From a virus: a DNA stretch of 64,000 nt. The stretch is from positions 12,489 to 76,488 of IMG/VR virus record IMGVR_UViG_3300043485_000037; one strand, 5' to 3'. Shown here piece by piece: positions 1,384 to 45,052 of this stretch. The notes below the pieces were generated by a model that was not told the origin of the DNA, did not search any database, and was given only the letters and a program-made list of their open reading frames with translations. A program made the position numbers and the translations under genes. Position 1 is the stretch's first letter. Every line of letters begins with the position of its first letter.

Positions 1384-1384
1384 T

Positions 1385-1633: not shown

Positions 1634-1773
1634 AGCAGCCGCCCAACCCTCTGAACCACCCGTGGCGCCGGTCCCGGCTCTCCCGCAAGCCGGGGGAGCC
1701 CAAGTCCACCTCCAACGGGCACAACTTGATCCACATCTGGCGCAAGGAGAGGGAGCGCAAATGGAAAAGATAG
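1630..1773 (+). CDS. small basic hypothetical protein
   Basis: MKQPPNPLNHPWRR..., ATGA overlap. Confidence 0.4.
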   Translation: MKQPPNPLNHPWRRSRLSRKPGEPKSTSNGHNLIHIWRKERERKWKR

Positions 1774-1973
1774 AATGCCCATACTGCGGAACCCCGTGCG
1801 AAGCGGAATACGTGGACATAGGGGTGGGCATGCAGCAGGTGACGGCCCACGCCTGCCCCAATTGCCACGCGGTGGAGATGGGACCCCACGACGAACCGGT
1901 GGAACTCACGGAGCAAGAAAAGCGCACGGGCTGGTATGAACCGGACCCGGCCTGGGCCGTGCCTCCCAAATGA
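1761..1973 (+). CDS. zinc-ribbon protein
   Basis: CPYC...CPNC. Confidence 0.6.
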   Translation: MEKIECPYCGTPCEAEYVDIGVGMQQVTAHACPNCHAVEMGPHDEPVELTEQEKRTGWYEPDPAWAVPPK

Positions 1974-2053
1974 AGACCGTCAAGATAGACGTGCACCCGG
2001 CCCTCATCGGCCTGCTCCTCCTCTGGATCTTCCACTGGACAGGCTGCTATTGA
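1970..2053 (+). CDS. small membrane peptide
   Basis: MKTVKIDVHPALIGLLLLWIFHWTGCY*, ATGA overlap. Confidence 0.4.
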   Translation: MKTVKIDVHPALIGLLLLWIFHWTGCY

Positions 2054-2067
2054 CGGGGCTAAGTTGA

Positions 2068-2892
2068 ATGGCCATGCAAGAGATAAGCAAAATTAGCAGG
2101 GAGTTCAGGAAGAAAAACGGGACCTTCAACGTGGACCTGGCCTTTGTGATCCAGTTTTACGACGCCTACCTGAGAGAGAAGAATCTGGCCGTCGTGGCCT
2201 CCACCTTCGGAGTCACCCCTTGGAACCTCCAGAAGATCATAGAGCGGCACACCGAGCTCCAGCTGGCAATGACCATGGCGGACGAGAACCGAAGGAAAGG
2301 CATCCTTGCTAACTACATCTTGTCGAATCTTTCCCATACCGCCAGGGCCACGTGGGAGAAGATCACCAAGCTGAGCACCTACGAAGAGATAGAAGCCGTG
2401 TTCAAGAAGCACCCCGTGAAGCTGCGCCAGCAACTCTTCTGCACGGCCATTCTCTACACCGGCCACGACAACTCCAAGGCCCTGCGCATGGTGGGCATAG
2501 ACTACAATCACCTCACCAAGTGGAAGCAGGACGCCGAATTCCTGCAGATGCTGGAGGAGGTCCAGTGGCACAAGAAGCAATTCTTCCAGAAGGCCCTCAT
2601 CGGCTTGGTCGCCGAGGGACACCCCGGAGCCGTGGTGTTCGTGAACCGGACCGTCAACGCGGACATGGGCTACAGCGAGCGGCTGGATCTGAACGTCCAG
2701 GGCCAGGCCGGCAATGACGTGCGCTACGAGCTGGAGCAACTGGACCTCCCCGTGGAGGTGCTGAAGACCGTCCTGGAAGCCATCGAGCGGAAGAACAAGG
2801 AGGATGGGATCACGGACGCGGAGGAGGTCCCGGAGTTCCCGACCAGCGGCCGTCCCATGAAGCGCATTGCGCGCACTCCGACCAAGGGCTAG
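2068..2892 (+). CDS. probable terminase small subunit
   Basis: Helical/HTH-like N-terminus; FFQKALIGLV...AVVFVNRT...GYSER motif typical of TerS; upstream of TerL. Confidence 0.55.
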   Translation: MAMQEISKISREFRKKNGTFNVDLAFVIQFYDAYLREKNLAVVASTFGVTPWNLQKIIERHTELQLAMTMADENRRKGILANYILSNLSHTARATWEKITKLSTYEEIEAVFKKHPVKLRQQLFCTAILYTGHDNSKALRMVGIDYNHLTKWKQDAEFLQMLEEVQWHKKQFFQKALIGLVAEGHPGAVVFVNRTVNADMGYSERLDLNVQGQAGNDVRYELEQLDLPVEVLKTVLEAIERKNKEDGITDAEEVPEFPTSGRPMKRIARTPTKG

Positions 2893-2919
2893 CGAGCTCC
2901 CGACTATAGCCTCGGCCCG

Positions 2920-4146
2920 TTGACGGTGGGCCGGATTATGAAAGATGACGAGCGCGACAGGCTGCTCCACATCACCCTTGATTGGGAGAAGGAGTGGAAG
3001 GCAGCCGGGATGCCGGAGTATAGCCAGGAGAACATCAACCCTTGGCAGTCTCTGGTGGTCCATTTCAAGAACCAGCACGACCGGGAGGACTTCTTTGCCA
3101 AGCTGGGCTTCCCTCCCCGGACGAACACCAACCTCACCATGAAGTGGACGTGGTATCCTCCGCAGGACTACCAGAAGTGGACGGACAAGAGCCATCCACC
3201 GACCAAGGTGGGCCCCAACAAGTATCCGGTCTATGTGATCAGCAAGGGCCGGGCCGACACCATGCTCACGATCCGGCAACTCAGGCACCTGGGCATCCCT
3301 CACTTCCTGGTGGTGGAGCCCCAGGAGCGGGAGAGGTATGCGATGGCCCTCCTCGCGCACGCGAAGGTGGTGGGGCTGGAAAACTCCAAGACCACGACCT
3401 TGCTGGTCCTGCCCGAGGCCAACTACGGCAAGGGCTGCTCGATCCCGGCTCGGAACTGGGTGTGGGCACATTCCATGAAGCTGAGGATTCCCGTCACCAA
3501 GCCCTGCGAGAGGTGCGGCGGCAGCGGGTTCTCCGGACGCGGGACCGGCTACGACGACGTGTGCAACCAGTGCGGAGGAATGAAGGAGGAGCTGGTGCGG
3601 TGGAAGGTTGGAGCCGACAAGCACTGGATCCTGGACGACAACATCCAGGGCTTCTTCGAGTTCAACCGCAACGAGAAGCCAAAGATCAGGGACTACAACC
3701 CGTTCGAGATTGTGGAGCGCTTTGTGGATCGGCACAACAACGTGGGCCTGGCCGGGATGAATTACGAGTTCTTCGTCCAGAGGAGGAACGACACCCCACC
3801 CTACTATCTGAACACGCGGGTCTATTCCTGCATCCTGATCCGCAACGACCTTCCGTTCAGATGGAGGGGCACATACAACGAGGACACGGACCTCAGCCTG
3901 CGGGTCCTCAAGTCCGGGATGTCCACGGTGCTCTTCAACTACGTGCTGGCCAAGAAGGTGACCACCATGATAATGAAGGGAGGCAACGAGGCGATCTACA
4001 AGCTGAAGGGGGAGGACGGGCGGCTCAAGATGGCCCAGGCCCTGATGAAGCAACATCCGGACCTGGTCAAGATCACGCACAAGTGGGGCAGGTGGCAGCA
4101 CCAAGTCAATTATGCCCCTTTCTCTCAGAACCGATTGGACCGATAA
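2920..4146 (+). CDS. TET-associated (TAGT)/GREB1-like glycosyltransferase 1, with N-terminal GMPE domain and inserted Zn ribbon
   Basis: YPVYVISKGR, HWILDDNI, RVYSCILI, WRGTYNEDTDLSLRVLKSG motifs. Confidence 0.8.
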   Translation: MTVGRIMKDDERDRLLHITLDWEKEWKAAGMPEYSQENINPWQSLVVHFKNQHDREDFFAKLGFPPRTNTNLTMKWTWYPPQDYQKWTDKSHPPTKVGPNKYPVYVISKGRADTMLTIRQLRHLGIPHFLVVEPQERERYAMALLAHAKVVGLENSKTTTLLVLPEANYGKGCSIPARNWVWAHSMKLRIPVTKPCERCGGSGFSGRGTGYDDVCNQCGGMKEELVRWKVGADKHWILDDNIQGFFEFNRNEKPKIRDYNPFEIVERFVDRHNNVGLAGMNYEFFVQRRNDTPPYYLNTRVYSCILIRNDLPFRWRGTYNEDTDLSLRVLKSGMSTVLFNYVLAKKVTTMIMKGGNEAIYKLKGEDGRLKMAQALMKQHPDLVKITHKWGRWQHQVNYAPFSQNRLDR

Positions 4147-4161
4147 TACGGGGAACAAACT

Positions 4162-5310
4162 ATGCTCGAAGAACAAGACAAGCTTTTGCCGGACCTGAAG
4201 CCGGACATCCTTCAGGAGTGGATAGGGATGCCCGACTTCAACATGGAGAACCTCATGTCGTGGCAGTCCACCGTGGTCCACTTCAAGTGCCAGAAGGACC
4301 GGGACGAGTTTGCCGCGCTCATCGGGCAGAAGCTGACCCCCAAGACCCGCAGCATCTGGTATCCCAAGGCGGAGATAGGCCACTTCGCGGGCAAGAGCTG
4401 GGAGAGTTCCCTGCCCCACCACCAGAAGGTCCCCCGGTATCCCATCTACATCATCAGCAAGGGGCGCTGGGAGAGCCGCAAGACCTCCAAGGCGTTGGAG
4501 AAGCTTGGCATTCCCTATTACATCGTGGTGGAGCCCCAGGAATACGACAACTATGCCTACTACATAGATGCGGCCAAGATACTGCGGCTGCCCAAGGAGA
4601 ACTACGGAGGAGGCTGCTCCATCCCGGCCCGGAACTTCTGCTGGGCCCACTCCCGGAGGCTCGGGGTGGCCCGCCACTGGGTGCTGGACGACAACATCGA
4701 GGGATTCTTCCGGCTCACCGACAATCTGAAGGTGCCCGTGGGAGACGGCATGATCTTCCGGGCTGCGGAGGAGTTCACGGACCGTTACGAGAACGTGGGC
4801 ATGAGTGGGTTCAACTACTTCATGTTCGCCCCGCGGAAGTCCCCGGACATCAAACCGTTCACGCTCAACACCCGCATCTATTCGTGCATCCTGCTGAGCA
4901 ACTCGATAGAGGACCCGGAGACGGAGAAGCCCTTTGCGTGGCGGGGCCGCTACAACGAGGACACGGACCTGTCCCTTCGGATCTTGAAGTCCGGGCTCTG
5001 CACGGTCCTCTTCAACGCATTCCTGGCCTTCAAGAACACCACGATGACCATGAAGGGAGGCAACACAGAGAGCCTCTATCAGAAGCAGGCCGGGTTCGAC
5101 GGGCGCCTGGAGATGGCCAAGAGCCTCAAGGCCCAGCATCCGCAGCACGTGAAGATCACGGAGAAGTGGCACAGGTGGCAGCACCACGTCGACTACTCCG
5201 GATTCACCCAGAAGCTGCGCAGGAAGCCGAACATCAAGGTGGAGAAGATCAAGAACAACTACGAGATGCACCTGAAGATCCAGCAGGGCAAGAGTGACCC
5301 GAAGATATAG
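4162..5310 (+). CDS. TET-associated (TAGT)/GREB1-like glycosyltransferase 2
   Basis: YPIYIISKGR, HWVLDDNI, RIYSCILL, WRGRYNEDTDLSLRILKSG; paralog of upstream gene. Confidence 0.8.
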   Translation: MLEEQDKLLPDLKPDILQEWIGMPDFNMENLMSWQSTVVHFKCQKDRDEFAALIGQKLTPKTRSIWYPKAEIGHFAGKSWESSLPHHQKVPRYPIYIISKGRWESRKTSKALEKLGIPYYIVVEPQEYDNYAYYIDAAKILRLPKENYGGGCSIPARNFCWAHSRRLGVARHWVLDDNIEGFFRLTDNLKVPVGDGMIFRAAEEFTDRYENVGMSGFNYFMFAPRKSPDIKPFTLNTRIYSCILLSNSIEDPETEKPFAWRGRYNEDTDLSLRILKSGLCTVLFNAFLAFKNTTMTMKGGNTESLYQKQAGFDGRLEMAKSLKAQHPQHVKITEKWHRWQHHVDYSGFTQKLRRKPNIKVEKIKNNYEMHLKIQQGKSDPKI

Positions 5311-5312
5311 GC

Positions 5313-5546
5313 ATGAGCAAGCCCAACATCCCGGAGGCCGAGCCCGAATACGACTACGGTGTGGCTGCTCCTCCCTTCTTCATCAGGAAGCGGAAGGACA
5401 AGACGGCCCCGGAGGTCCTGGTCCAGCGGGGAGCCAACGCGCCCAAGACCAACCAGGGCGACGCCATCATCAACGCGATGGCTCAGAGGATCCAAATCCT
5501 GCGAGCCGTCCAAACTCCGTCCCCAATCCCCAACCCATCAAAGTGA
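5313..5546 (+). CDS. hypothetical protein
   Basis: 77-aa ORF in the gene run. Confidence 0.55.
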   Translation: MSKPNIPEAEPEYDYGVAAPPFFIRKRKDKTAPEVLVQRGANAPKTNQGDAIINAMAQRIQILRAVQTPSPIPNPSK

Positions 5547-6016
5547 TGTTATACGAAGCGATAAGGACCCGTGAGGGTGAGAAGATCCGAGCCTGGGCCC
5601 GTCCCTCCGTCTACAATCCCGGCATAGAGGTCGGCTTGATGAAGGAGGTCCCGGCCCACGTGGTCCCCATCGAAGGGAAGCCGGGCGAGGTCCAGAACGT
5701 CCAGACCACCTACTACGACGCCAAGCTAGAGTGGGTGAAGGTGGAGCTGGGCACTGTCCAGCTGAACAACCCGCAGGGGATGGCCAACCTCCCGTATGAA
5801 TTGGCCCAGCAGCTCATGGACGTGCTTTGGGATGCGGGAGTCCGCCCGGCCGCGGCCAAGGCTTCCGTCGGCCAGCTCCAGGCCACCGAGAACCATCTGA
5901 AGGACCTCCAGACGATCAACGGGAAGCTGCTCGACAAGGTGCTCGAGAACCCGGCCTGGATCGCGATCGAGAAGATGACCGACTTCCGAACGAGCAAGGA
6001 CCCTCTCTCGCCGTGA
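5546..6016 (+). CDS. hypothetical protein
   Basis: MLYEAIRTREG..., overlaps upstream stop. Confidence 0.6.
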   Translation: MLYEAIRTREGEKIRAWARPSVYNPGIEVGLMKEVPAHVVPIEGKPGEVQNVQTTYYDAKLEWVKVELGTVQLNNPQGMANLPYELAQQLMDVLWDAGVRPAAAKASVGQLQATENHLKDLQTINGKLLDKVLENPAWIAIEKMTDFRTSKDPLSP

Positions 6017-6255
6017 CCGACCTGGATCGCATCCACAAGCTCAGGGTTGCCCTTCGCATGGCCGCGAACACATTCAAGCGTTACGAGCAGATCCACCTGA
6101 ACAAGGGGACCCCGGATGGGAAAACGAAGGCGCGAGAGAACAGCGAGCAAGCCGCCTATTTGGAGAAGGTCCTCAAGGAGACGGAAACCTTGCCCGCCGG
6201 GGGAGGAGCCACGGGCGGTGTTGTCCACCTGCCTCTCAGAAGGGTGGGAGAATGA
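6013..6255 (+). CDS. hypothetical protein
   Basis: GTGA overlap; YEQIHLNKGTPDG motif. Confidence 0.55.
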   Translation: MTDLDRIHKLRVALRMAANTFKRYEQIHLNKGTPDGKTKARENSEQAAYLEKVLKETETLPAGGGATGGVVHLPLRRVGE

Positions 6256-6296
6256 GCGAGAAGGAACTCATTAAGGTGGCCAAGTGATCCTCCGAG

Positions 6297-6503
6297 ATGA
6301 AAATAGCGATGGCCAAGCAGGGCCTTGCGATGCAGACAACCGGAAACACGGAGCAGGATGACGCTCATATCCACGATGCCGCAAGATCCACGTGCATGAT
6401 CGCTGCTGGGTTCTGCCCTAACGGGTGCGGAGAACTCCACGAGGTCGGCCAGCATCAGGTTTGCATCAAGTGCGGGTTTTCCTATCACCAAACAAGCATA
6501 TGA
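6297..6503 (+). CDS. small zinc-ribbon protein
   Basis: CPNGC...CIKCG. Confidence 0.5.
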   Translation: MKIAMAKQGLAMQTTGNTEQDDAHIHDAARSTCMIAAGFCPNGCGELHEVGQHQVCIKCGFSYHQTSI

Positions 6504-6676
6504 GCAGAACCTCCGGAGGACAATTCAAGTGCCCGGTCTGCGGGGAGACCGTGGGCACATACGGACGCTACCAGCACTACAACCGCCACGTGAAGGAAGG
6601 GAAGATGACCAAGGAGGCCAAGGCGGCTCGCTACGAGTTTTACATCAGCGGTCCCAACTACAGGAAGGCAGAATGA
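6500..6676 (+). CDS. C2H2-type zinc finger protein
   Basis: FKCPVCGETVGTYGRYQHYNRH. Confidence 0.6.
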   Translation: MSRTSGGQFKCPVCGETVGTYGRYQHYNRHVKEGKMTKEAKAARYEFYISGPNYRKAE

Positions 6677-6903: not shown

Positions 6904-6908
6904 ACAGT

Positions 6909-7362: not shown

Positions 7363-7436
7363 TGTGGATCGCGGTCTTTAGCCTTGCCTTGGTGGGCCTC
7401 ACGCTCATCAAGGCCGTCCGGGAGCGGGAGAAGTAA
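7362..7436 (+). CDS. small membrane peptide
   Basis: MWIAVFSLALVGLTLIKAVREREK*, one TM helix, abuts terL. Confidence 0.4.
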   Translation: MWIAVFSLALVGLTLIKAVREREK

Positions 7437-8944
7437 TGTTCAGCATCAGCGCGCGGGGAGCCAGGGCCGCGGTGGCCCGGTCCTCCTTCTACGAATTCCT
7501 CAAGCTCGTCTGGCCGATCATCGTGGCCGACAACCTGGTCAAGAATTGGCACATCGTATACCTCTGCGACCAGCTCCAGAAGATGGCCGAGCTGGTCTTC
7601 GCGGGCAAGCCGAAGGAATACGACATCGTGGTCAACATCTCTCCCGGCTCCTCCAAGAGCACAATTTGCTCCCAAGCCTTCCAGGCGTGGTGCTGGACCC
7701 GCATGCCTTCCTTCCGGTCCGTGAACGCATCCTACGCCTACGACGTGGCCCTCAAGGATTCGCTGGCCTGCCGCGACATCGTCCAGTCGGAGTTCTACCA
7801 GGACCACTTCCCCAACATCCAGCTGCGCGAGGACCAGAACGCCAAGGGCCTCTTCGTGAACACCAAGCGGGGAGCCCGGCTCAGCGCCTCCGTCGGATCC
7901 CGTCTCATGGGCTATCACGGGCACATGCTGTTCGTGGACGACCCGATCGACCCGGAGAAGGCCGTCAGCGAGGCCGAGCTCAAAAAGACCAACCGCTGGA
8001 TGACCACCACCCTTCCCTCCCGCGGCATCTTCCGGGCCGACACGCCCCTCTTCCTGATCCAGCAGCGACTCGCGCAGAATGATCCGTCCGGCGAGAGGAT
8101 AGAACGGGGCGGCCGCGTGAAGCACATCTGCATCCCGGCCGAACTCCTCTTCGACAAGGAGGGCAAGCTGACGGTCCTCGTTCAGCCACCCGGCCTCGCG
8201 AAGTATTACAAGCCGGACCGGAACGGCCACAGGTTGATGGATCCAGTGCGGCTCAACAAGCAGAATCTCACGGAGTTCGAAAAGACCTTGGGCGCCTACG
8301 GATACGCCGGCCAATACCTTCAGGACCCCGTGCCCCTGGGAGGAGCCCTGTTCGACATCACCAAGCTGCAGCTGATGGAGGTCTGCCCGCCCATGGTGCG
8401 TTTGGTCCGGGCCTGGGACAAGGCGGCCACCAAGGATGCGGGCGCCTACTCGGCCGGGGTCCTCCTCGGCATCGACAAGTTCGGGGACTACTGGATCATC
8501 GATGTGGTGCGCGGGCAGTGGACTCCCTCGGACCGGGAAAGGATGATCAAGCAGACGGCCCAGCTGGACGCGAAGGGTGCCCACACATACATTGGGGGAC
8601 AGAGGCCGGACCGGGTCAGCGTGGAGATTCTGGTGGAAACCGAAGGCGGCTCCGGAGGCAAGGAGAGCACCGAGAACACCGTCCGCAACCTCTCCGGATT
8701 CCGCATCATGGGCAAGCGGGTGACCGGGGAGAAGGAGGAGCGCGCCTACGCCTTTGCCTCCCAGGTGGGCGTCCAGGACCACGTGAAGGTGCTGAACCGG
8801 CCGTGGACCAAGGAATACATCTCGGAACTCCGCTACTTTCCCCACAGTCGGTATAAAGACCAGGTGGACGCAAGTTCACTTGCGTTCAACAGGATAGCGA
8901 AACCGAAAAGAATCATCGGTGCGGGGGCTCTCGAACGAAGATAG
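7436..8944 (+). CDS. terL: terminase large subunit
   Basis: Walker A variant NISPGSSKS, Walker B LFVDDPID, nuclease RAWDKAAT and KDQVDA. Confidence 0.92.
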   Translation: MFSISARGARAAVARSSFYEFLKLVWPIIVADNLVKNWHIVYLCDQLQKMAELVFAGKPKEYDIVVNISPGSSKSTICSQAFQAWCWTRMPSFRSVNASYAYDVALKDSLACRDIVQSEFYQDHFPNIQLREDQNAKGLFVNTKRGARLSASVGSRLMGYHGHMLFVDDPIDPEKAVSEAELKKTNRWMTTTLPSRGIFRADTPLFLIQQRLAQNDPSGERIERGGRVKHICIPAELLFDKEGKLTVLVQPPGLAKYYKPDRNGHRLMDPVRLNKQNLTEFEKTLGAYGYAGQYLQDPVPLGGALFDITKLQLMEVCPPMVRLVRAWDKAATKDAGAYSAGVLLGIDKFGDYWIIDVVRGQWTPSDRERMIKQTAQLDAKGAHTYIGGQRPDRVSVEILVETEGGSGGKESTENTVRNLSGFRIMGKRVTGEKEERAYAFASQVGVQDHVKVLNRPWTKEYISELRYFPHSRYKDQVDASSLAFNRIAKPKRIIGAGALERR

Positions 8945-8947
8945 TCT

Positions 8948-10442: not shown

Positions 10443-11372
10443 ATGCGAAACGTCCCAATCGAATTCTTTCTCGTGGCCCAGACGCGGGTCAACCCGGAGG
10501 CCGTCAAGAGGTGGCTGGAGTTCCTCGGGGTCTCCGAAAAATACAACGACGACCTCTACGACTTGATGGATCCATTCCCGGACTCTGGATCCACCACGGA
10601 GGAAAACATCACGGACCCAGCTCTGCTCATAGCCCTGGCGGCCAAGCGCTGCTACAAATCATTTGAGCCCTCTCTGAATCCCAATCTCTCCAAGGTCAGA
10701 TCCGACTGGACGGAGTATCTGGACAACGTGCTCAAGTCCCGGCACGGCTCCGTCTGCGAGCACGCCAGCTACTCCTTCGCCATCGAGAACGTGAGCCGGG
10801 TCTTCACGGGGGAGATGAACCGGCACCGGGCCGGGGTGGCCGTCTCGGAAGGTTCGATGCGCTTCATCCGCTACGACGACATTCCCTCCTGGCTGCCCAC
10901 CTCCATCCAAGTGACTCCGGAGGAGGTCAGCCTGTATAACCAGGTCATGATGTATGACCCGTCCCACGACACCTATGACCGGGCCCACTTCGAGCTGGTC
11001 CGCAAGAAGATCCAATCGCAGGATGTCTTCAAGGAGGTCTACGAGTTTGTGGAGAGCCGCTACAAGAAGCTGACGGGCATCTGGAAGGATGAGCTGTCCC
11101 CGGAATCCAAGTTCAAGGCCAAGAAGCACGTGACCTCCATGATGCGGAGGATTGTCCCCATGGGCGTCGCGACCGGAGGAGTCTGGACCCTGAACATCAG
11201 AGCCTTGCGCCACATCATGGCCATGCGCGCCTCCGACGCGGCCGAGGAGGAAATCTTTCACGTGTGGTCCCGGATCGGCAAGGAGATGGTGACCCAGGAG
11301 CCTATGCTGATCGGAGCCGACTTCACCCAGACCGCGGAAGGCTTCTGGGTGCCCAAATACGACAAGATATGA
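10443..11372 (+). CDS. thyX: flavin-dependent thymidylate synthase
   Basis: HGSVCEH, VSRVFTGEMNRHR...SEGSMRF (RHR-X7-S-XR signature), NIRALRH. Confidence 0.93.
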   Translation: MRNVPIEFFLVAQTRVNPEAVKRWLEFLGVSEKYNDDLYDLMDPFPDSGSTTEENITDPALLIALAAKRCYKSFEPSLNPNLSKVRSDWTEYLDNVLKSRHGSVCEHASYSFAIENVSRVFTGEMNRHRAGVAVSEGSMRFIRYDDIPSWLPTSIQVTPEEVSLYNQVMMYDPSHDTYDRAHFELVRKKIQSQDVFKEVYEFVESRYKKLTGIWKDELSPESKFKAKKHVTSMMRRIVPMGVATGGVWTLNIRALRHIMAMRASDAAEEEIFHVWSRIGKEMVTQEPMLIGADFTQTAEGFWVPKYDKI

Positions 11373-11865: not shown

Positions 11866-12122
11866 TGCAGAGCCGGAAGATGTCCGTGGCCGAGACGGCT
11901 GTGAACTACCTTGTGGGATACTTCCTCGCGTGGTTCATCATGACTTACCTCCTCCGCTGGCTTGGCTTTCCGGTGACCAAGGGCCAGTCCGGAGGAGTGG
12001 TCGCAATCTTCACGGCCGTTTCCGTGATCCGGTCCTATGCCATTCGAAGGCTCTTCAACTGGATCCACGTGAGGGCGAATATGAATAGAACAATGATTCA
12101 TCCGTTAGACAAGAGACCATGA
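11865..12122 (+). CDS. small two-TM membrane protein (common phage family)
   Basis: MQSRKMSVAETAVNYLVG...FTAVSVIRSYAIRRLF. Confidence 0.7.
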   Translation: MQSRKMSVAETAVNYLVGYFLAWFIMTYLLRWLGFPVTKGQSGGVVAIFTAVSVIRSYAIRRLFNWIHVRANMNRTMIHPLDKRP

Positions 12123-12838
12123 AAGCGCAGTTTTTGTTTTTTGTAGTAGGAGCCACAAGTGTGGGCAAGTCGACCTTCCTCCAGACGATCAAGGATGTTG
12201 GGGGCCTCCAGGTTCACCTGGTAGAAGTGGGCAAGCAGATGCGGGCCAAGTATCCTCCGGAGCACTTCAAGGGGCAATGCAACCCGGCTCACACCGCCGC
12301 GGAAGCGTTGCAGATGTGCTTGGAAGGGATCGAAGAAGCTGGCGAGAAGGCCGGGGCCAAGATCATCTTGGTGGACGGGCAGCCGCGGGACGTGGGCCAG
12401 GCGGAGGAGATTCTCGGCTGGAGGTTCCAGGACCACCGCACCAAGGCCGTGATCCATCTGATGTGCCACCGGGACGAACGGGAGCGGCGGGCCAGAGTCC
12501 GGGAAAAGAACAACCCCGGAGCCCTCCAGCTGGCTCTGGATCGTCTCGACCGGGACGTGCTTCAGCTCCACGAGGTCCTGATCACGTTTGACCGCTACGA
12601 CCGCTACAACTTCAACACCGGCCATCCCAACTACACCCCGCTGGCGGCCTTTCAGGAGGTGCTGAGGAAGTATGGCGCGTGCCTCTTGGGCACCAACGCC
12701 GTGCCCCCGGTCCCGGAGATGTCCGCCGCATCCCACGTCAACAAGACGGCGCGAGAACTCTTGGCCGCGGAGGAGGAGACCCGCATGCGGGAGCGACGCA
12801 TCTGCCAACCCGGCGAAGCCGAGAACGAAGGCCAGTGA
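12119..12838 (+). CDS. adenylate-kinase-like nucleoside monophosphate kinase
   Basis: P-loop GATSVGKST, VGKQMR, ILVDGQPRDVGQA. Confidence 0.75.
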   Translation: MKAQFLFFVVGATSVGKSTFLQTIKDVGGLQVHLVEVGKQMRAKYPPEHFKGQCNPAHTAAEALQMCLEGIEEAGEKAGAKIILVDGQPRDVGQAEEILGWRFQDHRTKAVIHLMCHRDERERRARVREKNNPGALQLALDRLDRDVLQLHEVLITFDRYDRYNFNTGHPNYTPLAAFQEVLRKYGACLLGTNAVPPVPEMSAASHVNKTARELLAAEEETRMRERRICQPGEAENEGQ

Positions 12839-39300: not shown

Positions 39301-39504
39301 CCGGACTTGGTGGCCCCGGTCTACACCTTCACCGCGGGCTCTCCCGGATTTGCCGGCATCCCTACCGACGCGGACATCGAGTGGTTGCTGGACACCGATC
39401 TGGCCCACCCGACTCTGTATTGGCGAGTCGCCCTTTTCGACGTGTGGGGGAACGAGATAGAAACCAACATCACGGCCAACCAGATCATTGCGGCATTCCC
39501 GTAG
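36325..39504 (+). CDS. central tail fibre/host specificity protein (gpJ-like) with C-terminal FN3
   Basis: NQIRLGEPIEVCYGR, GRYQVRLRR, IAWSAAFGAQYYVVQTS; 1059 aa. Confidence 0.9.
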   Translation: MAHIIETPNAFQPLTALKQHQVSGGITVNEWLRSVRPGNNADGWREFDTAATIVFNGTDYQLRHYDPETGRSPGWDRVIEEEDFVNLVLVPEGPFIIIALIIVVVAVAVTLAFSAMAPKAPGELPASDPVFSTRGQYNQIRLGEPIEVCYGRNRMYPSLAGRPYFQYIDNDQFQYVLFCIGQGYYDIEQILIGDSDISTYQEVTYEIVEPGGEVTIFPTNVLTSVEVGGQTLFGINEPEYGADGWIGPFNSNGPGTLAYQLQIDVVFPKGIYSVNKKGNLQNIAIGYQWQARPIDDLGNPLGPYVDLFSPSPHVINGATTTPQRRSYTATVTPGRYQVRLRRTTSFDPSYKTGNEVLWEGMRSLIETEQDWGNVTLMAVKIRATNNLNAQTQQRFNVIAVRKLPIRNELGIWSAPTATRSIVWAFVDVYKATYGGRISNDAYLDWATLLALDELYEDRDEHFDWVFRDPITVWEGSQSIATVGRAVPLLSGSLVTAKRQGPLTVPVAMFTPDNIHKGTFKWELKLWKQDENDCLRIEYTEPDTGYKQETVICVLPGGTTNNPKDIRLIGVQDRTHAYHQGMFILACNKYLREQISFETGLEGHIPQYGELVAVVHDVPRWGQSGYIVHMEEGAGDNKLLWVSEPLVWDSTSDNNYVVMLRNKNGGLLGPFAATKTDDAKQVFINAPGVEDWQLDGRSDPMLFYFGPAVETTKYLRLAKLEPSGDEAVNVTAVTDDSRIHSFDELEPPALATVPVPPVPPDAPTVAQVYITQIADVNSVVQIAWSAAFGAQYYVVQTSEDNVNWQDQGNTVQTSLQIQVRPGPLYVRVAGVNNGQGPWALANTSIGVVTGLDDDIPWEFLEWQVSWFSVLNAIGYTVRVYDYTDPMAPVLKRTASRAIDQLSYLYDYSLAVPDGNLVRNMLVTVDAEFDDGPANLPTELILFNSIPLPPENPAHTAGGIDTTFHKQYNVTWDVPEEDDLITVKVWLSDDPLFDPDLVAPVYTFTAGSPGFAGIPTDADIEWLLDTDLAHPTLYWRVALFDVWGNEIETNITANQIIAAFP

Positions 39505-39528
39505 TCAAGAATGAGGCTAGACGAGTGA

Positions 39529-39768
39529 GTGACCTTTTGCTATCTATGCCTCATGACTGCAAACAACCATCTGATCTGGAAGGCACCCCGAAGCGCCACA
39601 CTAATCAACCGACGGCCGCGGCCGGAACTCATCCCGGTGTGCTGCGGCGCCTGCTGCGGAGCCGGACGCCTGATCGACGAATCCCTGGTGATCTGCCCAA
39701 GCTGCAAAGGCCGAAGCTGGGTCCTCATACCCGCGCCGCCAATGCCGCTCTACGACGCGGGCCTATGA
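39529..39768 (+). CDS. small DnaJ-type zinc ribbon protein
   Basis: CGACCGAG...CPSCKG. Confidence 0.5.
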   Translation: MTFCYLCLMTANNHLIWKAPRSATLINRRPRPELIPVCCGACCGAGRLIDESLVICPSCKGRSWVLIPAPPMPLYDAGL

Positions 39769-40487
39769 GCAAGGCTCCGATCAGCATCTCCATTCCAACT
39801 CATTGCAGGCCGGAGATGTTGGCGGAGAGTTTTGCTGCGGTGCTGAACGACGAGCGCGTCCGGGAGATTTGCATCTCGGATGACTGCTCGCCGGAGGATT
39901 CATACGCAAAGCTGGTGGACCGCTGGGGAGACCACCCGAAGGTCCGGCTCTTTCGGAACAAGCACAATCTCGACTGCTACCGGAACAAGCGGCAGGCTGT
40001 CGAATGCGCCACAAGTGACTTCACAATTCTGCTCGATGACGACAACATCCTCGGGCCCGATTATCTGGACCGGCTCTGGGATTATCCGGACTGGAATCCG
40101 AACACCATCTATTGCCCGGACCTGGCCCACCCGCATTTCAATTACAGGAGATTCTCCGGCCATCTCATCTCCCGGCACAACGTGGCCCACTTCATGACCC
40201 TGCCTTACCGGAAGGGTGAGACGGAGTTCCGGACGGCTCTGAACACCTGCAACTACTTCTTCCATCGGGAGACGTATCTGTCGAGATGGGTGGGAGACGT
40301 GGACCCGGTCACCGCGGACACGATGTTCACCGCATATAATTGGCTGGCCGCCGGGGGCTTCCTCACTTTTGTCCGCAACATGCAATACATCCATCGGATC
40401 CATGCCGGGTCCCATTACAAGAACAATCACAAGAGGACCGGCAACTTTGCCCTCCTGATCGAAACCAAAATAAGACAACTCAGATGA
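39765..40487 (+). CDS. GT2-family glycosyltransferase
   Basis: ISIPTHCR...ISDDCS...ILLDDDN (DxD). Confidence 0.85.
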   Translation: MSKAPISISIPTHCRPEMLAESFAAVLNDERVREICISDDCSPEDSYAKLVDRWGDHPKVRLFRNKHNLDCYRNKRQAVECATSDFTILLDDDNILGPDYLDRLWDYPDWNPNTIYCPDLAHPHFNYRRFSGHLISRHNVAHFMTLPYRKGETEFRTALNTCNYFFHRETYLSRWVGDVDPVTADTMFTAYNWLAAGGFLTFVRNMQYIHRIHAGSHYKNNHKRTGNFALLIETKIRQLR

Positions 40488-41287
40488 CTTCCACCGTCAC
40501 GTTCGACCCCGTCGGCCGGTTGGGCAACTTCCTCTTTGAGGCGGCCTCCTGCATGGCATACGCTTGGGACCACGAGATCAACTTCGCGCTCCCGAACCGG
40601 ACCAACGATGCCTACTGGAACCCGGTGTATTTGCGCCATCTCTCCGGCCAGCTGGATCCCAACCAACCCAAGGTGGTGGTCCAGGAGAGGCAATTCAACT
40701 ATCACGCACGGGAGTTCCGGACCACGTGGAGGCAGGGCTATGCCATTTATTTGAACGGCTACTGGCAGACGGAGAAGTATTTCAAGAAGTATCGCGAGCG
40801 GATCTTGGAGCAGTTTCGCTACCCGTGGATCAAGGCCGGCAAGCTCGTCTCCGTCCACGTCCGCCGGGGAGACTACCTGAAGATCCAGAAGAAGGTCGGG
40901 GCCAGGATCATTTTCAAGCACCCTCCCGTGACCAAGGAATGGTATCTGCGGCAGATGGCCAAGTTTCCCAAGCACGTCTTCGCCTTCTACTCGGACGACC
41001 TCGCGTGGTGCAAGGAGAACTTTGGGCACCTGGGCGACCGGGTCATGTTTGCGCCCCACTGGACGGGGCCGTGCGGGGACCTCGAAGCCACCCCGGAGGA
41101 GCAGGACCTTGTCTGCATGTCTTGCTGCGAACACCACATCTGCTCGGCCTCCACATTTTCATGGTGGGGGGCGTGGCTGAACCGGAGCCCGAAGAAGCGG
41201 GTCATCATGCCGCAGCACTGGATCACCCCCGGCTGGTCGGATCTTGATTTTTCCGACGTGGTGCCGGAGGGCTGGGAGCGCGCATGA
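40484..41287 (+). CDS. GT11 alpha-1,2-fucosyltransferase-like
   Basis: GRLGNFLF, GYWQTEKYF, VHVRRGDY, FYSDDLAWC, STFSWWGAWL. Confidence 0.9.
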   Translation: MTSTVTFDPVGRLGNFLFEAASCMAYAWDHEINFALPNRTNDAYWNPVYLRHLSGQLDPNQPKVVVQERQFNYHAREFRTTWRQGYAIYLNGYWQTEKYFKKYRERILEQFRYPWIKAGKLVSVHVRRGDYLKIQKKVGARIIFKHPPVTKEWYLRQMAKFPKHVFAFYSDDLAWCKENFGHLGDRVMFAPHWTGPCGDLEATPEEQDLVCMSCCEHHICSASTFSWWGAWLNRSPKKRVIMPQHWITPGWSDLDFSDVVPEGWERA

Positions 41288-41575
41288 ATGAATCCCGTGG
41301 CCAAGTATGCGACCAGCCCGGACAATCCCAACGGATGGTTGGTGCATTACTGTCCGGGGTGCGAACAGCGCCACGTGGTCCCGATCAAGGAGCCGAATCA
41401 TCTTGGCCACGTGTGGAAGTTCAACGGCAACATGGAAAAGCCGACTCTGGTTCCGTCCGTGAACTACGTCGGCAGTTGCCACTACATTCTCTCGGACGGG
41501 GTGATTCACTTTTGCGGAGATTGCACCCACGATCTGGCCAACAAAATAATTCCCTTGGAACCCATACCTGAATGA
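41288..41575 (+). CDS. DUF6527-like Cys/His protein
   Basis: CPGC...H...WKFNG..EKPT..PSV....CH....DG.I.FC.DCTH. Confidence 0.65.
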   Translation: MNPVAKYATSPDNPNGWLVHYCPGCEQRHVVPIKEPNHLGHVWKFNGNMEKPTLVPSVNYVGSCHYILSDGVIHFCGDCTHDLANKIIPLEPIPE

Positions 41576-42387
41576 GCTTGCTGAAAGATACCCACGCCGA
41601 ATACGTCAACCTCGATGCCCGGCCCGAGCGGAGGGAGAGAATGGAGCACGAGCTGAAGCGCGTCAAGATCCAGGCCGAGAGGCGCAGAGGTCTCCTGCCT
41701 TCGGAGGTGAAGATTAACCCGGCCCGGATCAAGGGAATGTGGGAACGGAAGCAGAAGGGCGCCATCGGTTGCCACTTCTCCCAGGTGGCCGTGATGAAGG
41801 AAGCCATGCGGAGAAAGAAGCACGCGCTGGTGATGGAGGACGACCTGGTGTTCTGCATGGATCTTCAGGAAAGGCTCCAAGAGATTGAGCTGTTCATGGA
41901 CAAGAATCCGTGGGACGTGTTCTGGCTGGGCGGCACCTTTCACATGGGCAAACCTTGGTGGCACAAGAAGCCCAACCCGGAGAGGGGTTGCGTGCCTCTG
42001 GGCAAGGACGCCGAGAGGGTCCCTGGCTGGCCCCGCTTCTTCCGGACGTATGGATGCTTCTGCACCTACGCCTACATCGTGAACGCAAAGTCGATCGGTA
42101 AGATTCTGGCCATGTTTGAGGAGCGGCTCCCGGAGTCCATCGGGATCGACCACATGTTCATCATGCTCCAACCGAAGCTGAACACCTTCGCCTTCGTGCC
42201 CGGCTCCGTCAAGCAATACGACCACGTGTCGGACATCGGGGTGGACCGCCACGGCCGTCCGGACACGACGACCTTCAGCAACTTCGCCAAGCTCAACGGC
42301 ACTTACGAGAATTCAACATATTGGTTTGCGGACTGGATCAACCAGTTCGATCCGGATACTTTCAACTGGAATGAAGCTGCACGATAA
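41572..42387 (+). CDS. GT25-family glycosyltransferase
   Basis: YVNLDARPERR, GAIGCHFSQ, LVMEDD, CTYAYIVN. Confidence 0.85.
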   Translation: MSLLKDTHAEYVNLDARPERRERMEHELKRVKIQAERRRGLLPSEVKINPARIKGMWERKQKGAIGCHFSQVAVMKEAMRRKKHALVMEDDLVFCMDLQERLQEIELFMDKNPWDVFWLGGTFHMGKPWWHKKPNPERGCVPLGKDAERVPGWPRFFRTYGCFCTYAYIVNAKSIGKILAMFEERLPESIGIDHMFIMLQPKLNTFAFVPGSVKQYDHVSDIGVDRHGRPDTTTFSNFAKLNGTYENSTYWFADWINQFDPDTFNWNEAAR

Positions 42388-43069
42388 ACTGGAGGACACC
42401 CTCGGAGGCAAATGGAGCGGGCTCCACGGCGAGGTCGTGACCCAGGACTGCTACCGGGTCCGGGAGCTGAAGTGGCATCCCGACCTGGTCTTCGACCTCG
42501 GCGCGAACGTCGGGACCTTCACCCGGCACGCCCTGGATCTTTGGCCTCGCTGCCAGGTGGTGGCCGTCGAGCCAGACCCGGAGAACGCGGCCCACTTCCG
42601 GAAGTTCACGGACATGAGCCGGGTCGAGTTGATCGAGGCCGCCATCGGGAAGGGCCAAATCTGGAAGGCATCCGGAGCGGCCAACGGTTCCGGGGAGGTC
42701 TACATGTCTTGCGGGGTGGGCTATCCCAAGTTGAAGATGCCGAAGGCTTCCAACATGTCCCGGTCGGAAGTTAAGGCCATCAACCTCCAGGGATTGTGCA
42801 AGGGGCGACTGAACCGGAACTTGAAGACGGTGCTCAAGTTGGACATCGAGGGAGCCGAGCACGCGATCTTCTCGGATCCCCGCTCGATGAAGTATCTCTG
42901 GCAGATGGACTATCTTGCAATGGAGCTGCACCGATACGCCATCGACGGTTCGGAGCAGGAGGCAGCCAATGAATTGGTGGAGCTGGCCGTGACCCTCCTG
43001 AAGGATTCCCACTTCGTCCAGGTGGCCGGGGTGCACTTGTGGGCTTGGAAAAAGAACATCAGCTTATGA
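42371..43069 (+). CDS. FkbM-family methyltransferase
   Basis: VFDLGANVG, AVEPDPEN, LKLDIEGAE. Confidence 0.85.
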   Translation: MKLHDKLEDTLGGKWSGLHGEVVTQDCYRVRELKWHPDLVFDLGANVGTFTRHALDLWPRCQVVAVEPDPENAAHFRKFTDMSRVELIEAAIGKGQIWKASGAANGSGEVYMSCGVGYPKLKMPKASNMSRSEVKAINLQGLCKGRLNRNLKTVLKLDIEGAEHAIFSDPRSMKYLWQMDYLAMELHRYAIDGSEQEAANELVELAVTLLKDSHFVQVAGVHLWAWKKNISL

Positions 43070-43620
43070 AGTCGATCAAATACAGACGGGACCTCTGGCA
43101 GCTCTTCGCACGGCCGGGGGCAGCCGCGGAGATAGGAGTGGCCGAAGGCAACAACAGCCGGGACATGCTCGAGTGGAAGTTGGAGGACGGCAGACCGGCC
43201 GTGACCACTCTCTACATGGTGGACCGGTGGAAGGAGAACCCGGAGCAGTTCGGCGACGCCGCCATGCCTCAGGACTGGCACGACAAGAACTTCCGGCAGG
43301 TCCAGCACAAGATCAAGCCCCACGGCACCCGCGCGATCATCCTCCGGGGCGACTCGGTTGAGATGGCCGACCAGGTGCCGGACCGGTCGCTTGTGCTGGT
43401 TTACATCGACGCCGACCATACCGAGCCCGGTTGCTTCCGAGACCTCCGGGCCTGGGTCCCCAAGGTCAAGAAGGGGGGCATCGTTGGGCTCCACGACTTC
43501 CTGAACGAAGCCTATGGCGTGAGGAAGGCCGTCGAGGCGTTCTGCGCCAACAATTTCAAGATCCACATCATCGAGGAGGATAAACCCGAAGATGCCGGCG
43601 CTTGGTTTCGAGTATGTTAA
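43066..43620 (+). CDS. class I SAM methyltransferase (Methyltransf_24-like)
   Basis: AEIGVAEG, MVDRW, YIDADH, GGIVGLHDF. Confidence 0.85.
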   Translation: MKSIKYRRDLWQLFARPGAAAEIGVAEGNNSRDMLEWKLEDGRPAVTTLYMVDRWKENPEQFGDAAMPQDWHDKNFRQVQHKIKPHGTRAIILRGDSVEMADQVPDRSLVLVYIDADHTEPGCFRDLRAWVPKVKKGGIVGLHDFLNEAYGVRKAVEAFCANNFKIHIIEEDKPEDAGAWFRVC

Positions 43621-44249
43621 TTCCATTTGATCAACTGTTCACCCGCCACGGGGTCCAGCCCGTTGGCGTCCTTCACGTCGGCGCCCACGAAGGGCAGGAA
43701 GCCGAAGCCTACAACCAACTGAGGGTCCCCCGCGTCATCTGGGTGGAAGCCAACCCGGAGACCCACCGGAAGTTGGTGGCTCATGTTGGCCGCATGCCCG
43801 GCCACAGCACGATCCTGGCTTGCGTGGCCGACGAGGACGGCAAGCCGGTGGACTTCCACATTGCGTCCAACGCGGGCCAGTCCTCCTCCATATTGGAGTG
43901 GGGAACCCACACGCTGGTGCACCCGGAGGTCCGGTGGACGCGCCATCTCAAGATGAAGACCTCCCGGCTGGACACCTTGATCCATGACCGGGGAGTCCGC
44001 CTGAAGCCGGGCTGGTTCCTGAACCTGGACCTCCAGGGAGCCGAACTGAGGGCCTTGAAGGGACTGGGGAGCCTGATCGACTTCTTCAACTGGGCATACA
44101 TTGAGGTCAATGAGCAGCAGCTCTACAAGGGTTGCCCGTTGGTAGGAGAGATGGATGCATTCATGTCCGCGGCCGGGTTCCGTCGGGCTGAGACCCAGAT
44201 GTCGGGGAACCACGGCTGGGGAGACGCTTTGTATACTCGGATCGTATAA
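43614..44249 (+). CDS. FkbM-family methyltransferase
   Basis: VLHVGAHEG, WVEANP, LNLDLQGAELRALKG. Confidence 0.88.
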   Translation: MLIPFDQLFTRHGVQPVGVLHVGAHEGQEAEAYNQLRVPRVIWVEANPETHRKLVAHVGRMPGHSTILACVADEDGKPVDFHIASNAGQSSSILEWGTHTLVHPEVRWTRHLKMKTSRLDTLIHDRGVRLKPGWFLNLDLQGAELRALKGLGSLIDFFNWAYIEVNEQQLYKGCPLVGEMDAFMSAAGFRRAETQMSGNHGWGDALYTRIV

Positions 44250-45052
44250 TGCTCACAACCATCACGCCATACTGGGGTCGTCCGGAGATGCTGAAAGGTT
44301 GGGTCGACGCACTTCAACTTGCCTCCGTCCCGGAGGTCCGCCACATCATCTTTTTCATTGGAGAAGATCCGCCGGAGTGGTTCAACGCATGCAAGGCTCC
44401 CGTCCTGGCTGTCCAGTGCGCGGAGCAACCCGGCAAGTCGATAGGCCATTATCACAACGAGGGAGCCGAGTTGGCCAAGACGGAATGGATCATGAAGCTG
44501 GACATCGACACGGTCCCGAACGTCCGCTACTTTCGGCACTTGCTTCCGATCCTGCAGAACGCGAAGGAGCGCGAATGGTTCAACGGCGGCATGATCTATC
44601 TTTCCCGGTCGGCTTCCAACCGGCTCATGATTCCGGTCACAGAGTCGACCTATTCGAGCATCATGGCCGTCCCTCGCGCCTACACCGCCTCGAACGGCCA
44701 CGAGCCAGCTGGATCCAACTTCATCTGCCGGCGATCCGAATACCTGAAGCTGGGCGGATGCCTGGAGACCTTCCGGGGCTACGGGTGGGAAGATTATCAG
44801 CAGCTGTATATGCTGGAGCGCCACCAGCTGGGCCGGGACCCGCTGGTTGGCCACGTGACCATCGACAATGTGACCTCCCGGTGCCGGGACGAGATCAGCC
44901 GCCCGAAAGCCAAGGAGCTGCACGGCCGGGACCGTTGGCTGGTTCTCCTCCACAGATTCCATCAGCCGGCGGGCAACAAAACCCAGGATCAGATGGCGCG
45001 CAACCGGGCCGTTCTCTTCGACTATGTCGAGACGCAACGAATGGGAAGTTGA
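44249..45052 (+). CDS. GT2/GT7C-type glycosyltransferase
   Basis: IMKLDID (DxD), LGGCLETFRGYGWED. Confidence 0.82.
   Translation: MLTTITPYWGRPEMLKGWVDALQLASVPEVRHIIFFIGEDPPEWFNACKAPVLAVQCAEQPGKSIGHYHNEGAELAKTEWIMKLDIDTVPNVRYFRHLLPILQNAKEREWFNGGMIYLSRSASNRLMIPVTESTYSSIMAVPRAYTASNGHEPAGSNFICRRSEYLKLGGCLETFRGYGWEDYQQLYMLERHQLGRDPLVGHVTIDNVTSRCRDEISRPKAKELHGRDRWLVLLHRFHQPAGNKTQDQMARNRAVLFDYVETQRMGS

Follow-up and report, generated by a model that had tools for sequence, protein, structure and literature searches.

The 64,000-nucleotide stretch analysed here, referred to below as the window, comprises bases 12489-76488 of the 78,033-base virus record IMGVR_UViG_3300043485_000037, which originates from an uncultured phage of a soil metagenome and has a CheckV completeness of 100%. 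At positions 2920-5310 of the window, two tandem genes encode paralogous glycosyltransferases of the TAGT/GREB1 family, TAGT-1 and TAGT-2, which are located upstream of the gene for the large terminase subunit (TerL). An initial annotation, made from the sequence alone, had described them as a pair of TAGT/GREB1-like DNA glycosyltransferases. The enzyme family itself is already known; the real interest of the locus lies in the question of the acceptor.

Two intact glycosyltransferase paralogs

Both genes encode intact paralogous glycosyltransferases of the TAGT/GREB1 family, as is evident from family membership, the GT-A fold, and the catalytic motifs, and the description of the pair as tandem paralogs is hence confirmed. 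The Pfam scores (Table 1) exceed the curated cut-off of family TAGT (PF20691), which is 27.5 bits, and TAGT-1 and TAGT-2 match PHROG 842, named for the T-even beta-glucosyl-HMC-alpha-glucosyltransferase, with E values of 3e-36 and 5e-41, respectively. The two proteins share 43% identity from end to end (E 1e-97), the N-terminal ~90 residues included, and are both basic, with isoelectric points (pI) of 9.3-9.4. The open reading frame (ORF) of TAGT-1 begins with TTG 2920 (408 amino acids); ATG 2938, with the ribosome-binding site GGTGGG upstream, is the likelier start.

The motifs SKGR, HWxLDDNI, YSCIL, and WxGxYNEDTDL, noticed at the outset, are found in both proteins as ISKGR, HW(I/V)LDDNI, YSCIL, and WRG(T/R)YNEDTDL and show little or no variation among 61 homologs. 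Both paralogs also possess the fused N-terminal domain that had been recognized by its W-x-GMP(E/D)...VVHFK..DR..F...WYP pattern, the full form of which is W-x-GMP(E/D)(Y/F)...VVHFK..DR(E/D)(D/E)F...WYP. Residues R102, D176, D177, E266, and D267 of TAGT-2 and R111, D239, D240, E321, and D322 of TAGT-1 are invariant in 61-62 sequences. The arrangement R102...D176-D177...E266-D267 of TAGT-2 corresponds to the signature R...DDD...ED(Y/F), which is shared by experimentally tested phage GT-A enzymes acting on DNA with 5-hydroxymethylcytosine (5hmC) and by the trypanosome base-J glucosyltransferase JGT (10.1101/2023.12.21.572611).

The AlphaFold2 models of both proteins exhibit a GT-A fold. The mean predicted local distance difference test score (pLDDT) is 88.5 for TAGT-2, which was modelled from a 61-sequence alignment with a predicted template modelling score (pTM) of 0.88, and 81.8 for TAGT-1. 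Structural matches in the PDB are GT2-type GT-A enzymes with Z values of 11-14; Foldseek returned GnT-I, TarP, and others at E values of about 1e-5 to 1e-6. In Swiss-Prot, the TAGT domains of GREB1 and GREB1L come first (E 4.5e-10 to 1e-8, residues ~64-338), ahead of generic GT-A enzymes, and among the BFVD viral models, TAGT proteins come first, including a phage protein named beta-glucosyl-HMC-alpha-glucosyltransferase, a name borne by proteins of ~280 amino acids. A profile search of PDB sequences detected no relative. One BFVD entry, A0A6G6XN95 (890 amino acids), is 40% identical to TAGT-2 and contains ~500 additional residues of unassigned nature.

The paralogs differ in two regions, a zinc-ribbon insert in TAGT-1 and a basic C-terminal tail in TAGT-2 (Table 1). 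Residues 193-223 of TAGT-1 are matched by PHROG 9961 and PHROG 21790, and the insert is modelled poorly (pLDDT 41-52). The insert shows no similarity to the ribbon protein encoded at 39529-39768 (E 0.61). The length of the TAGT-1 ortholog of the related contig L003 (338 versus 408 amino acids) suggests that the insert is missing there.

A tree obtained by a quick maximum-likelihood search from 92 catalytic domains and an outgroup, with Shimodaira-Hasegawa-like approximate likelihood ratio (SH-aLRT) supports only, places TAGT-2 with the second copies of the contigs L003 and L008 (support 99), the sister group being a form with a split gene linked to ParB, while TAGT-1 clusters with the first copies of the same two contigs in a different subclade (support 92). 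The duplication is, therefore, older than these three phages. The pairs found in L005/L010, L018, L011, and L028 are each other's nearest relatives, which implies that tandem duplication took place independently in at least four other lineages. In addition, a metagenomic protein of 979 amino acids combines two TAGT-domain stretches and several stretches of the N-terminal module in a single chain. Prediction of a TAGT-1:TAGT-2 complex gave weak support, with a score of 0.56 against 0.00 for the best of three controls. Of 80 solved complexes, 58 attain the mark set for such predictions, as do 2 of 110 mismatched pairs; at 0.60 or under, this applies to only 7 of the 80 but to both passing mismatches. 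Contact agreement among the runs was at least 69% and the pLDDT of the partner at least 76. Since the chains are paralogs, the predicted contacts may reflect only a homo-oligomer interface of the family. That two diverged copies would act jointly or in sequence, as had been put forward, fits the recurrent duplication, the 979-residue protein, and the complex prediction.

Table 1. Features of the TAGT locus and of related genes in the window (positions are those of the window)
Feature	Position	Strand	Remarks
Upstream gene	2068..2892	+	274 amino acids; weak small-terminase or helix-turn-helix (HTH)-like candidate; phrog_4102 'terminase small subunit', E 9.5e-5; all Pfam matches sub-threshold
TAGT-1 (paralog 1)	2938..4146	+	402 amino acids from ATG 2938; PF20691, 115.9 bits; pI 9.4
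N-dom of TAGT-1	2965..3222	+	residues ~16-101; aligns with stand-alone and ParB-fused N-dom proteins
Zinc-ribbon insert	3484..3606	+	CxxCxGxG...CxxCGG, ~41 residues; in TAGT-1 only as compared with TAGT-2; situated in the loop that precedes the DxD strand; opposite a gap in the TAGT-1/TAGT-2 alignment
DxD-type metal/nucleotide-sugar motif, TAGT-1	3634..3639	+	D239-D240 in HWILDDNI; invariant in 62 sequences
NEDTD acidic motif, TAGT-1	3877..3891	+	N320-D324; invariant in 62 sequences
TAGT-2 (paralog 2)	4162..5310	+	382 amino acids; PF20691, 136.3 bits; ATG 4162 behind GGGGAA
N-dom of TAGT-2	4195..4437	+	residues 12-92; pLDDT 85-96 in the full-length model
DxD-type motif, TAGT-2	4687..4692	+	D176-D177; invariant in 61 homologs
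NEDTD motif, TAGT-2	4954..4968	+	N265-D269; invariant in 61 homologs
Basic C-terminal tail, TAGT-2	5212..5307	+	pI of tail 10.3; family-conserved NNY(G/E)M, alignment consensus ...KP........NNYGMxL; no such tail in TAGT-1
TerL, large terminase subunit	7436..8944	+	Terminase_6C, E 7e-6; 2.1 kb downstream of the TAGT pair
HNH_3 endonuclease	8948-9409	same as TAGT genes	E 2e-17; directly 3' of TerL
ThyX, flavin-dependent thymidylate synthase homolog	10443..11372	+	309 amino acids; PF02511, E 2.5e-32; sole pyrimidine-C5 enzyme in the genome
P-loop kinase-like protein (AAA_17)	12119..12838	+	PF13207, E 8.6e-8; downstream of ThyX
Portal	13732-15465	same as TAGT genes	followed by MuF-like protein
Glycan cassette, seven genes	39381..45052	+	after tail-tip (GpJ-like) gene; GT2, GT11, GT25, FkbM methyltransferase, Methyltransf_24, FkbM methyltransferase, GT2-like (Pfam)

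The N-terminal module and the gene neighbourhood of the subfamily

The N-terminal module of either paralog, designated N-dom, comprises ~75-85 residues with the consensus W-x-GMPEF...VHF...D..FA.L.GQ..T..T.S.WYP. The homolog search yielded at least ~8000 proteins at 90% clustering, and among the matches listed, query cover was 92-100%, including the N-terminus. For comparison of loci, 80 related loci were fetched from IMG/VR and scanned in six frames with the family profile; the counts given below refer to 86 loci. In 52 of these, N-dom is encoded in a frame different from that of the catalytic domain; the two are fused in ~23 and present in reversed order in 4. At the split junctions, the catalytic gene overlaps the N-dom stop by 11 nucleotides (34 of 54) or by 4 nucleotides (7 of 54), and the split catalytic gene opens with ATG AAT CCT (MNPKYP), which is equivalent to NPRYP of the fused forms. 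N-dom is a separable subunit that is translationally coupled to the enzyme gene in most relatives.

The sequence ahead of N-dom is of bimodal length, with 28 ORFs carrying 120-180 additional residues. In these extensions, Pfam recognizes ParB_N with 44.6 bits in one locus (L043) and with about 20 bits in three others, and an iterated in-house profile unites all 28 under the ParB/Srx consensus ..NPRKH..SI.EFG...PIVV...I.DGHQR.., by which ParB_N is assigned to 28 of the 86 loci. In one of the loci (L015), ParB_N, N-dom, and TAGT are joined in a triple fusion. ParB-linked and fused TAGT forms are interleaved in the tree. A structure search of the ESM Atlas independently matched N-dom to viral ParB_N-containing proteins with TM (template modelling) scores of 0.60-0.69; a search of Atlas features for named proteins related to N-dom but outside TAGT gave no usable match. 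With a profile of N-dom only, 3375 representatives of 50% clusters were collected, 2451 of them at E <= 1e-10, and in the best 150 of these matches, N-dom is mostly found at the C-terminal end of proteins of 80-250 residues. Ten longer N-dom proteins were scanned; six contain TAGT, one a sub-threshold ParB_N, one a sub-threshold LAGLIDADG match, and two nothing known, TAGT and ParB_N being the only recognized partners. In the literature searched, neither the N-dom module nor its link to ParB was found described. The linkage of N-dom and ParB_N is the best pointer, albeit an indirect one, to DNA as the substrate; neither it nor the separable nature of N-dom had been recognized in the initial annotation. 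In comparison to the ParB-linked relatives, the present phage possesses a fused N-dom, a tandem duplicate, and a zinc-ribbon insert in one copy, while ParB_N is missing.

N-dom is present in four cultured phages with close TAGT homologs and absent from Nonlabens phage P12024L. In Vibrio phage henriette 12B8 (L089), an N-dom ORF (124 amino acids, about 5696-5950) and a TAGT catalytic gene (6001-6837) are unannotated in GenBank and lie within the replication module, between hypothetical genes and the gene of a dUTPase. In Aeromonas phage Aeh1 (L090), the small gene following the fused N-dom/TAGT gene (Aeh1p092 region; record positions 63283-63426) encodes a second, free-standing N-dom. Tandem N-dom copies occur in some metagenomic proteins (P0191, P0127, P0213).

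Neighbouring genes were compared by clustering the ORFs within 6 kb of TAGT across the related loci. A T4-type TerL gene is located downstream of TAGT in 36 loci, at a median distance of ~1.7 kb (gene midpoints), and a different type of TerL gene upstream in 5. Other neighbours are a portal gene (11 loci), a gene for an HTH or gp3-like small protein (10 loci), a gene for an NAD-dependent sugar epimerase/dehydratase (8 loci), and methyltransferase genes (about 5 each). Within this 6-kb range, no further enzyme family is conserved beside the TAGT cassette, and in most relatives there is no other glycosyltransferase nearby. In the 77-kb and 74-kb contigs L003 and L005, a tandem TAGT pair precedes the gene at the TerL position, for which no Pfam match is on record. 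L003 shares with the present genome the location of ThyX, which is followed by an NAD epimerase/dehydratase, while in L005, GT2 and GT11 genes come directly after MuF. For the coupling to packaging that had been envisaged, the conserved place beside the terminase is the sole pointer. The designation of the upstream gene as probable small terminase is backed by no more than one weak PHROG match (Table 1).

Acceptor and possible targets

The TAGT pair would, at about even chances, function as late-acting DNA glycosyltransferases on the phage's own DNA. This assignment is based on four lines of argument. The characterized phage members of PF20691, for instance, the T2/T6 enzyme, act on DNA (PMC13216743, PMC13390438). 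In a third of the loci, N-dom and ParB_N form part of one protein. For a different DNA-modifying enzyme, the thymine dioxygenase 5mYOX176, activation on double-stranded DNA by a phage ParB homolog, ParB176, has been proven (PMC13229309). And, finally, the tree shows the fused and the ParB-linked forms interspersed with each other. The 5mYOX176/ParB176 couple resembles the N-dom/TAGT subfamily in that a DNA-modifying phage enzyme has a ParB homolog as its partner, and glycosyltransferase and terminase genes are often close by (PMC13229309); the difference is that 5mYOX176 is a dioxygenase, not a glycosyltransferase. No dioxygenase was detected here.

According to the proposed scenario, both genes would be expressed late, together with the packaging genes, no promoter or terminator having been seen between the TAGT and the terminase genes. 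In the scan of positions 1-9500, promoter and terminator sites were no commoner than in shuffled sequence, for which reason operon boundaries could not be set. As metal-dependent GT-A enzymes, TAGT-1 and TAGT-2 would bind the nucleotide sugar at the DD motif and transfer the sugar onto the phage DNA after replication, before or during packaging, with N-dom contributing to the part of the enzyme that receives the acceptor. Elsewhere among phages, N-dom would tether a ParB-type DNA loader or activator, with which the present phage would have dispensed. The paralogs would probably be paired, either adding sugars sequentially, in the manner of the T2/T6 alpha-glucosyltransferase and the subsequent TAGT enzyme, or forming two linkages or serving two sequence contexts; possibly, TAGT-1 and TAGT-2 would form a hetero-oligomer. 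An analogy for a pair of differing specificities is T4, where two stereochemistries are advantageous (PMC13216743).

The T2/T6 beta-glucosyl-HMC-alpha-glucosyltransferase, the founding characterized member of PF20691, shares with the pair the Pfam family, PHROG 842, the GT-A fold, and the acidic motifs. It is the second enzyme in a scheme of two glycosyltransferases acting on phage DNA and, thus, a model for the tandem arrangement (PMC13216743, PMC13390438). The T2/T6-named proteins of ~280 amino acids are too short for N-dom, and tblastn at E 1e-5 reaches no T-even phage. Moreover, the T2/T6 enzyme needs 5hmC, provided by gene 42, and the alpha-glucosyltransferase, while the present genome has neither a ThyA-family gene nor an alpha- or beta-glucosyltransferase gene. 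A second group with the same family and active-site signature is formed by the GT-A enzymes associated with TET/5mYOX, examples being the TET-TAGT-methylase cluster of Nonlabens phage P12024L and the enzymes tested by Pyle et al. (10.1101/2023.12.21.572611) and Burke et al. (PMC8256090). These enzymes act after replication, and in some clusters, successive glycosyltransferases build di- and trisaccharides. The P12024L enzyme has 252 amino acids and shows 29% identity over the catalytic part only, and its genome is without N-dom. In the TET-associated systems, a C5 methylase and a dioxygenase are encoded beside the glycosyltransferase, while there is no Tet_JBP match at cut-off either here or in 25 relatives.

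These 25 are the larger IMG/VR records with the N-dom/TAGT subfamily, 10 of which are at least 90% complete. Neither ThyA nor ThyX nor Tet_JBP above cut-off occurs in any of them, and a C5 methylase is found in three, all incomplete. In one of the related records (L013; G001 13102-14964), a C5 DNA methylase (755-amino acid frame) is encoded ~3.6 kb downstream of a fused TAGT of 632 amino acids, whose N-terminal extension is not ParB-like. As controls, the same searches recover TET in the Nonlabens phage and ThyA-family genes in henriette, Aeh1, and Paraglaciecola GD1, and they find neither TET nor ThyA in Vibrio phage 1.076.O. Aeromonas phages Aeh1 and 65 possess full-length TAGT homologs with 37-44% identity (tblastn); both are outside the list of phages with gene 42, which encodes dCMP hydroxymethylase, and are named as being without gene 56 (PMC2993671). 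The co-occurrence of the family with TET/JBP dioxygenases or hydroxymethylases, as claimed in the initial annotation, is therefore valid for the classic branch, represented by Nonlabens phage P12024L without N-dom, and does not extend to the N-dom branch, which, unlike the TET-associated one, is not tied to a known route to 5hmC, 5-hydroxymethyluracil (5hmU), or 5-hydroxycytosine (5hoC). From this it follows that a 5-hydroxymethylpyrimidine as the DNA acceptor is an assumption rather than a finding.

Several points weigh against DNA as the target. Every characterized DNA glycosyltransferase needs, to our knowledge, 5hmC, 5hmU, or 5hoC. The window had been reported to contain no TET, C5-methylase, or hydroxymethylase, and this holds genome-wide, as six-frame searches of the complete genome gave no match at E <= 1 for Tet_JBP (PF12851), the C5 DNA methyltransferases (PF00145), or the ThyA family (PF00303); the same genome contains neither the alpha-glucosyltransferase PF11440 nor the beta-glucosyltransferase PF09198, and its replication module is of standard composition. 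Nor do the 25 subfamily records supply an acceptor route. The ParB argument is transferred from relatives, since a six-frame search of this genome gave no match to ParB_N (PF02195) at E <= 1. No experiments on any member of the N-dom subfamily were found in the literature searched. The pair belongs to the operon of structural and packaging genes, and the same phage has seven other glycan-building genes; in Vibrio phage 1.076.O, the TAGT homolog is encoded between the portal and the head-morphogenesis (MuF) genes. Finally, the eukaryotic GREB1, which belongs to the same Pfam family and is, with GREB1L, the best reviewed structural match at an identity of only 14-19%, carries TAGT as a domain of a 1,900-amino acid cytoplasmic protein and O-GlcNAcylates a protein, the oestrogen receptor (PMC7968844). 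With none of the tested acceptor-making enzymes (Tet_JBP, ThyA, C5 methylase) present, the acceptor would be a group of canonical DNA, the product of an unrecognized enzyme or, less likely, a ThyX-derived pyrimidine. A dioxygenase or hydroxymethylase hidden among the unassigned early proteins was considered and rejected, as PHROGs identified these as clamp, DnaB, primase, SSB, and MazG; the proteins encoded at 55181-56026 (Ala/Lys/Pro-rich, histone-like) and 13034-13735 (low-complexity) were likewise discarded as acceptor-making enzymes, neither being enzyme-like.

The absence of the tested acceptor pathways from the genome and from the subfamily, together with the genomic location and the activity of GREB1, would at the same time be in accordance with glycosylation of proteins of the virion or of the packaging machine, which we regard as rather unlikely, though it is the foremost competitor of DNA glycosylation. 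The enzymes may then add a first sugar, to be extended and methylated by the products of the cassette at 39.4-45 kb. Terminase, portal, and head genes share a same-strand late operon with the pair, the subfamily is found beside TerL or portal genes in many phages, and L005 with its GT2 and GT11 genes after MuF offers a similar picture. Virion glycosylation operons of the mycobacteriophages Che8, Corndog, and Myrna contain glycosyltransferase and methyltransferase genes among structural genes, as does the cassette of the present phage. We know, however, of no TAGT-family glycosyltransferase reported from these mycobacteriophage systems and of no link of their operons to ParB or N-dom. Protein as the target is also disfavoured by the joining or coupling of N-dom to ParB_N in a third of the loci, which points to DNA, the only other recognized partner being TAGT, by the location of the TAGT gene among replication genes in henriette 12B8 and Paraglaciecola GD1, and by the lack of another glycosyltransferase near the TAGT cassette in most relatives.

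The ThyX gene, which had been overlooked in the initial annotation and whose product is the sole pyrimidine-C5 enzyme of the genome, opens a further route to DNA glycosylation, which is considered very unlikely. A diverged ThyX would synthesize a C5-hydroxymethyl or C5-hydroxy pyrimidine nucleotide, the P-loop kinase and the MazG-like pyrophosphatase would feed it into replication, and the TAGT enzymes would subsequently glycosylate the DNA. Such a role would be compatible with the unusual late-operon site 5 kb from the TAGT genes, where a kinase-like gene follows, with the retention of this site in L003 beside a sugar epimerase/dehydratase, with the presence of a MazG-like pyrophosphatase, and with the peculiarities of the protein, which is long (309 amino acids), has one additional residue in the motif (RHR-x(7-9)-S-x-R), and carries Phe in place of Tyr after S-x-R. 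A precedent for flavin chemistry at C5 is given by flavin-using ThyA homologs that hydroxylate dCMP (PMC13326640). On the other hand, alignment with the structures of Mycobacterium tuberculosis ThyX reveals conservation of RHR...S-x-R, of the histidine, and of the uracil-binding arginines, as expected for an ordinary dTMP synthase, and the protein has the appearance of a regular thymidylate synthase. Phages commonly encode ThyX as a plain thymidylate synthase, and we know of no hydroxymethylase or hydroxylase of the ThyX type. As it occurs in none of the 25 other subfamily records, ThyX cannot explain the acceptor of the subfamily.

Hardly probable, either, is an action elsewhere in the infected cell, on a host envelope precursor, a small molecule, or host DNA or protein in the course of takeover or anti-defence; the GT-A neighbours in PDB and Swiss-Prot, which are mostly polysaccharide, teichoic-acid, and lipid-linked sugar transferases (TarP-like, rhamnosyltransferase-like), and the missing acceptor pathway would fit, yet by eye neither of the two basic proteins has a signal peptide or membrane segment, their sequence family is TAGT and not GT2, and such a role would not account for the subfamily's linkage to ParB_N and its location beside the terminase.

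Returning to DNA as the target, a more far-reaching proposal, which we hold to be unlikely, is that N-dom/TAGT enzymes, with or without a ParB-type loader, would, at about the packaging stage, attach sugar to DNA in which no hydroxymethyl or hydroxyl group has been installed beforehand, the target being a canonical base or else the product of an unrecognized class of enzyme. If this were true, a novel kind of DNA glycosylation would exist in thousands of phage lineages; in the present phage, two specialized paralogs would build or diversify the adduct, which might be extended by the other glycosyl- and methyltransferases.

DNA glycosylation is a major means by which phages escape restriction enzymes, CRISPR, and glycosylase-based defences, and it provides tools for epigenetic sequencing. 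'Solitary' TAGT genes without a partner were reported from 288 of 753 phage genomes (PMC13216743), and partnerless glycosyltransferases account for about 65% of glycosyltransferase contigs (Pyle et al., 10.1101/2023.12.21.572611), both being unexplained there. The locus described here belongs to a coherent, very large subfamily with its own adaptor subunit, a recurrent ParB partner, a place beside the terminase, and no tested acceptor pathway, to which it contributes a fused, duplicated, ParB-less variant with a zinc-ribbon insert and evidence for recurrent duplication. A DNA acceptor would mean new chemistry; with a protein acceptor, the annotation in phage genomes of a family that is assumed to be DNA-active would have to be revised. 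With Vibrio phage 1.076.O and Aeromonas phages Aeh1 and 65, cultured carriers of the subfamily are available, so that the glycosylation target is directly testable.

Genome context

The ends of the record are repeats, bases 1-2398 recurring at 75635-78033 with 99.96% identity and one gap, contrary to the classification of the record as linear and free of end repeats; allowing for the terminal repeat, the unique length is ~75.6 kb. Close phage relatives at the DNA level were not detected by blastn of positions 2000-9000 against 50,697 phage records. Between TAGT-2 and TerL, the plus strand contains small ORFs without family matches, and the ORF at 24108-24737 has no Pfam match at E <= 0.001.

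The region 10443-12838, between TerL/HNH and the portal gene, comprises ThyX, two small ORFs, a DUF7220 gene, and the AAA_17 kinase-like gene, which is an unusual site for nucleotide metabolism. The opposite-strand module and the remaining genome encode PolA, clamp loader, clamp, DnaB, primase, the single-stranded DNA-binding protein SSB, RecA-like, SNF2, FEN, and SbcCD-like proteins as well as a MazG-like protein, an FkbM methyltransferase, and a sigma-factor-like protein. Among the early genes on the minus strand are those of a weak member of the uracil-DNA glycosylase (UDG) superfamily (45995-46723), an eighth methyltransferase, of the FkbM type (47279-47914), and the MazG-like pyrophosphatase (62488-63276). 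A further early gene of the same strand (55181-56026) encodes a protein of 281 amino acids without Pfam or PHROG match, whose Ala/Lys/Pro-rich tail resembles that of histone H1 and which may possibly coat DNA.

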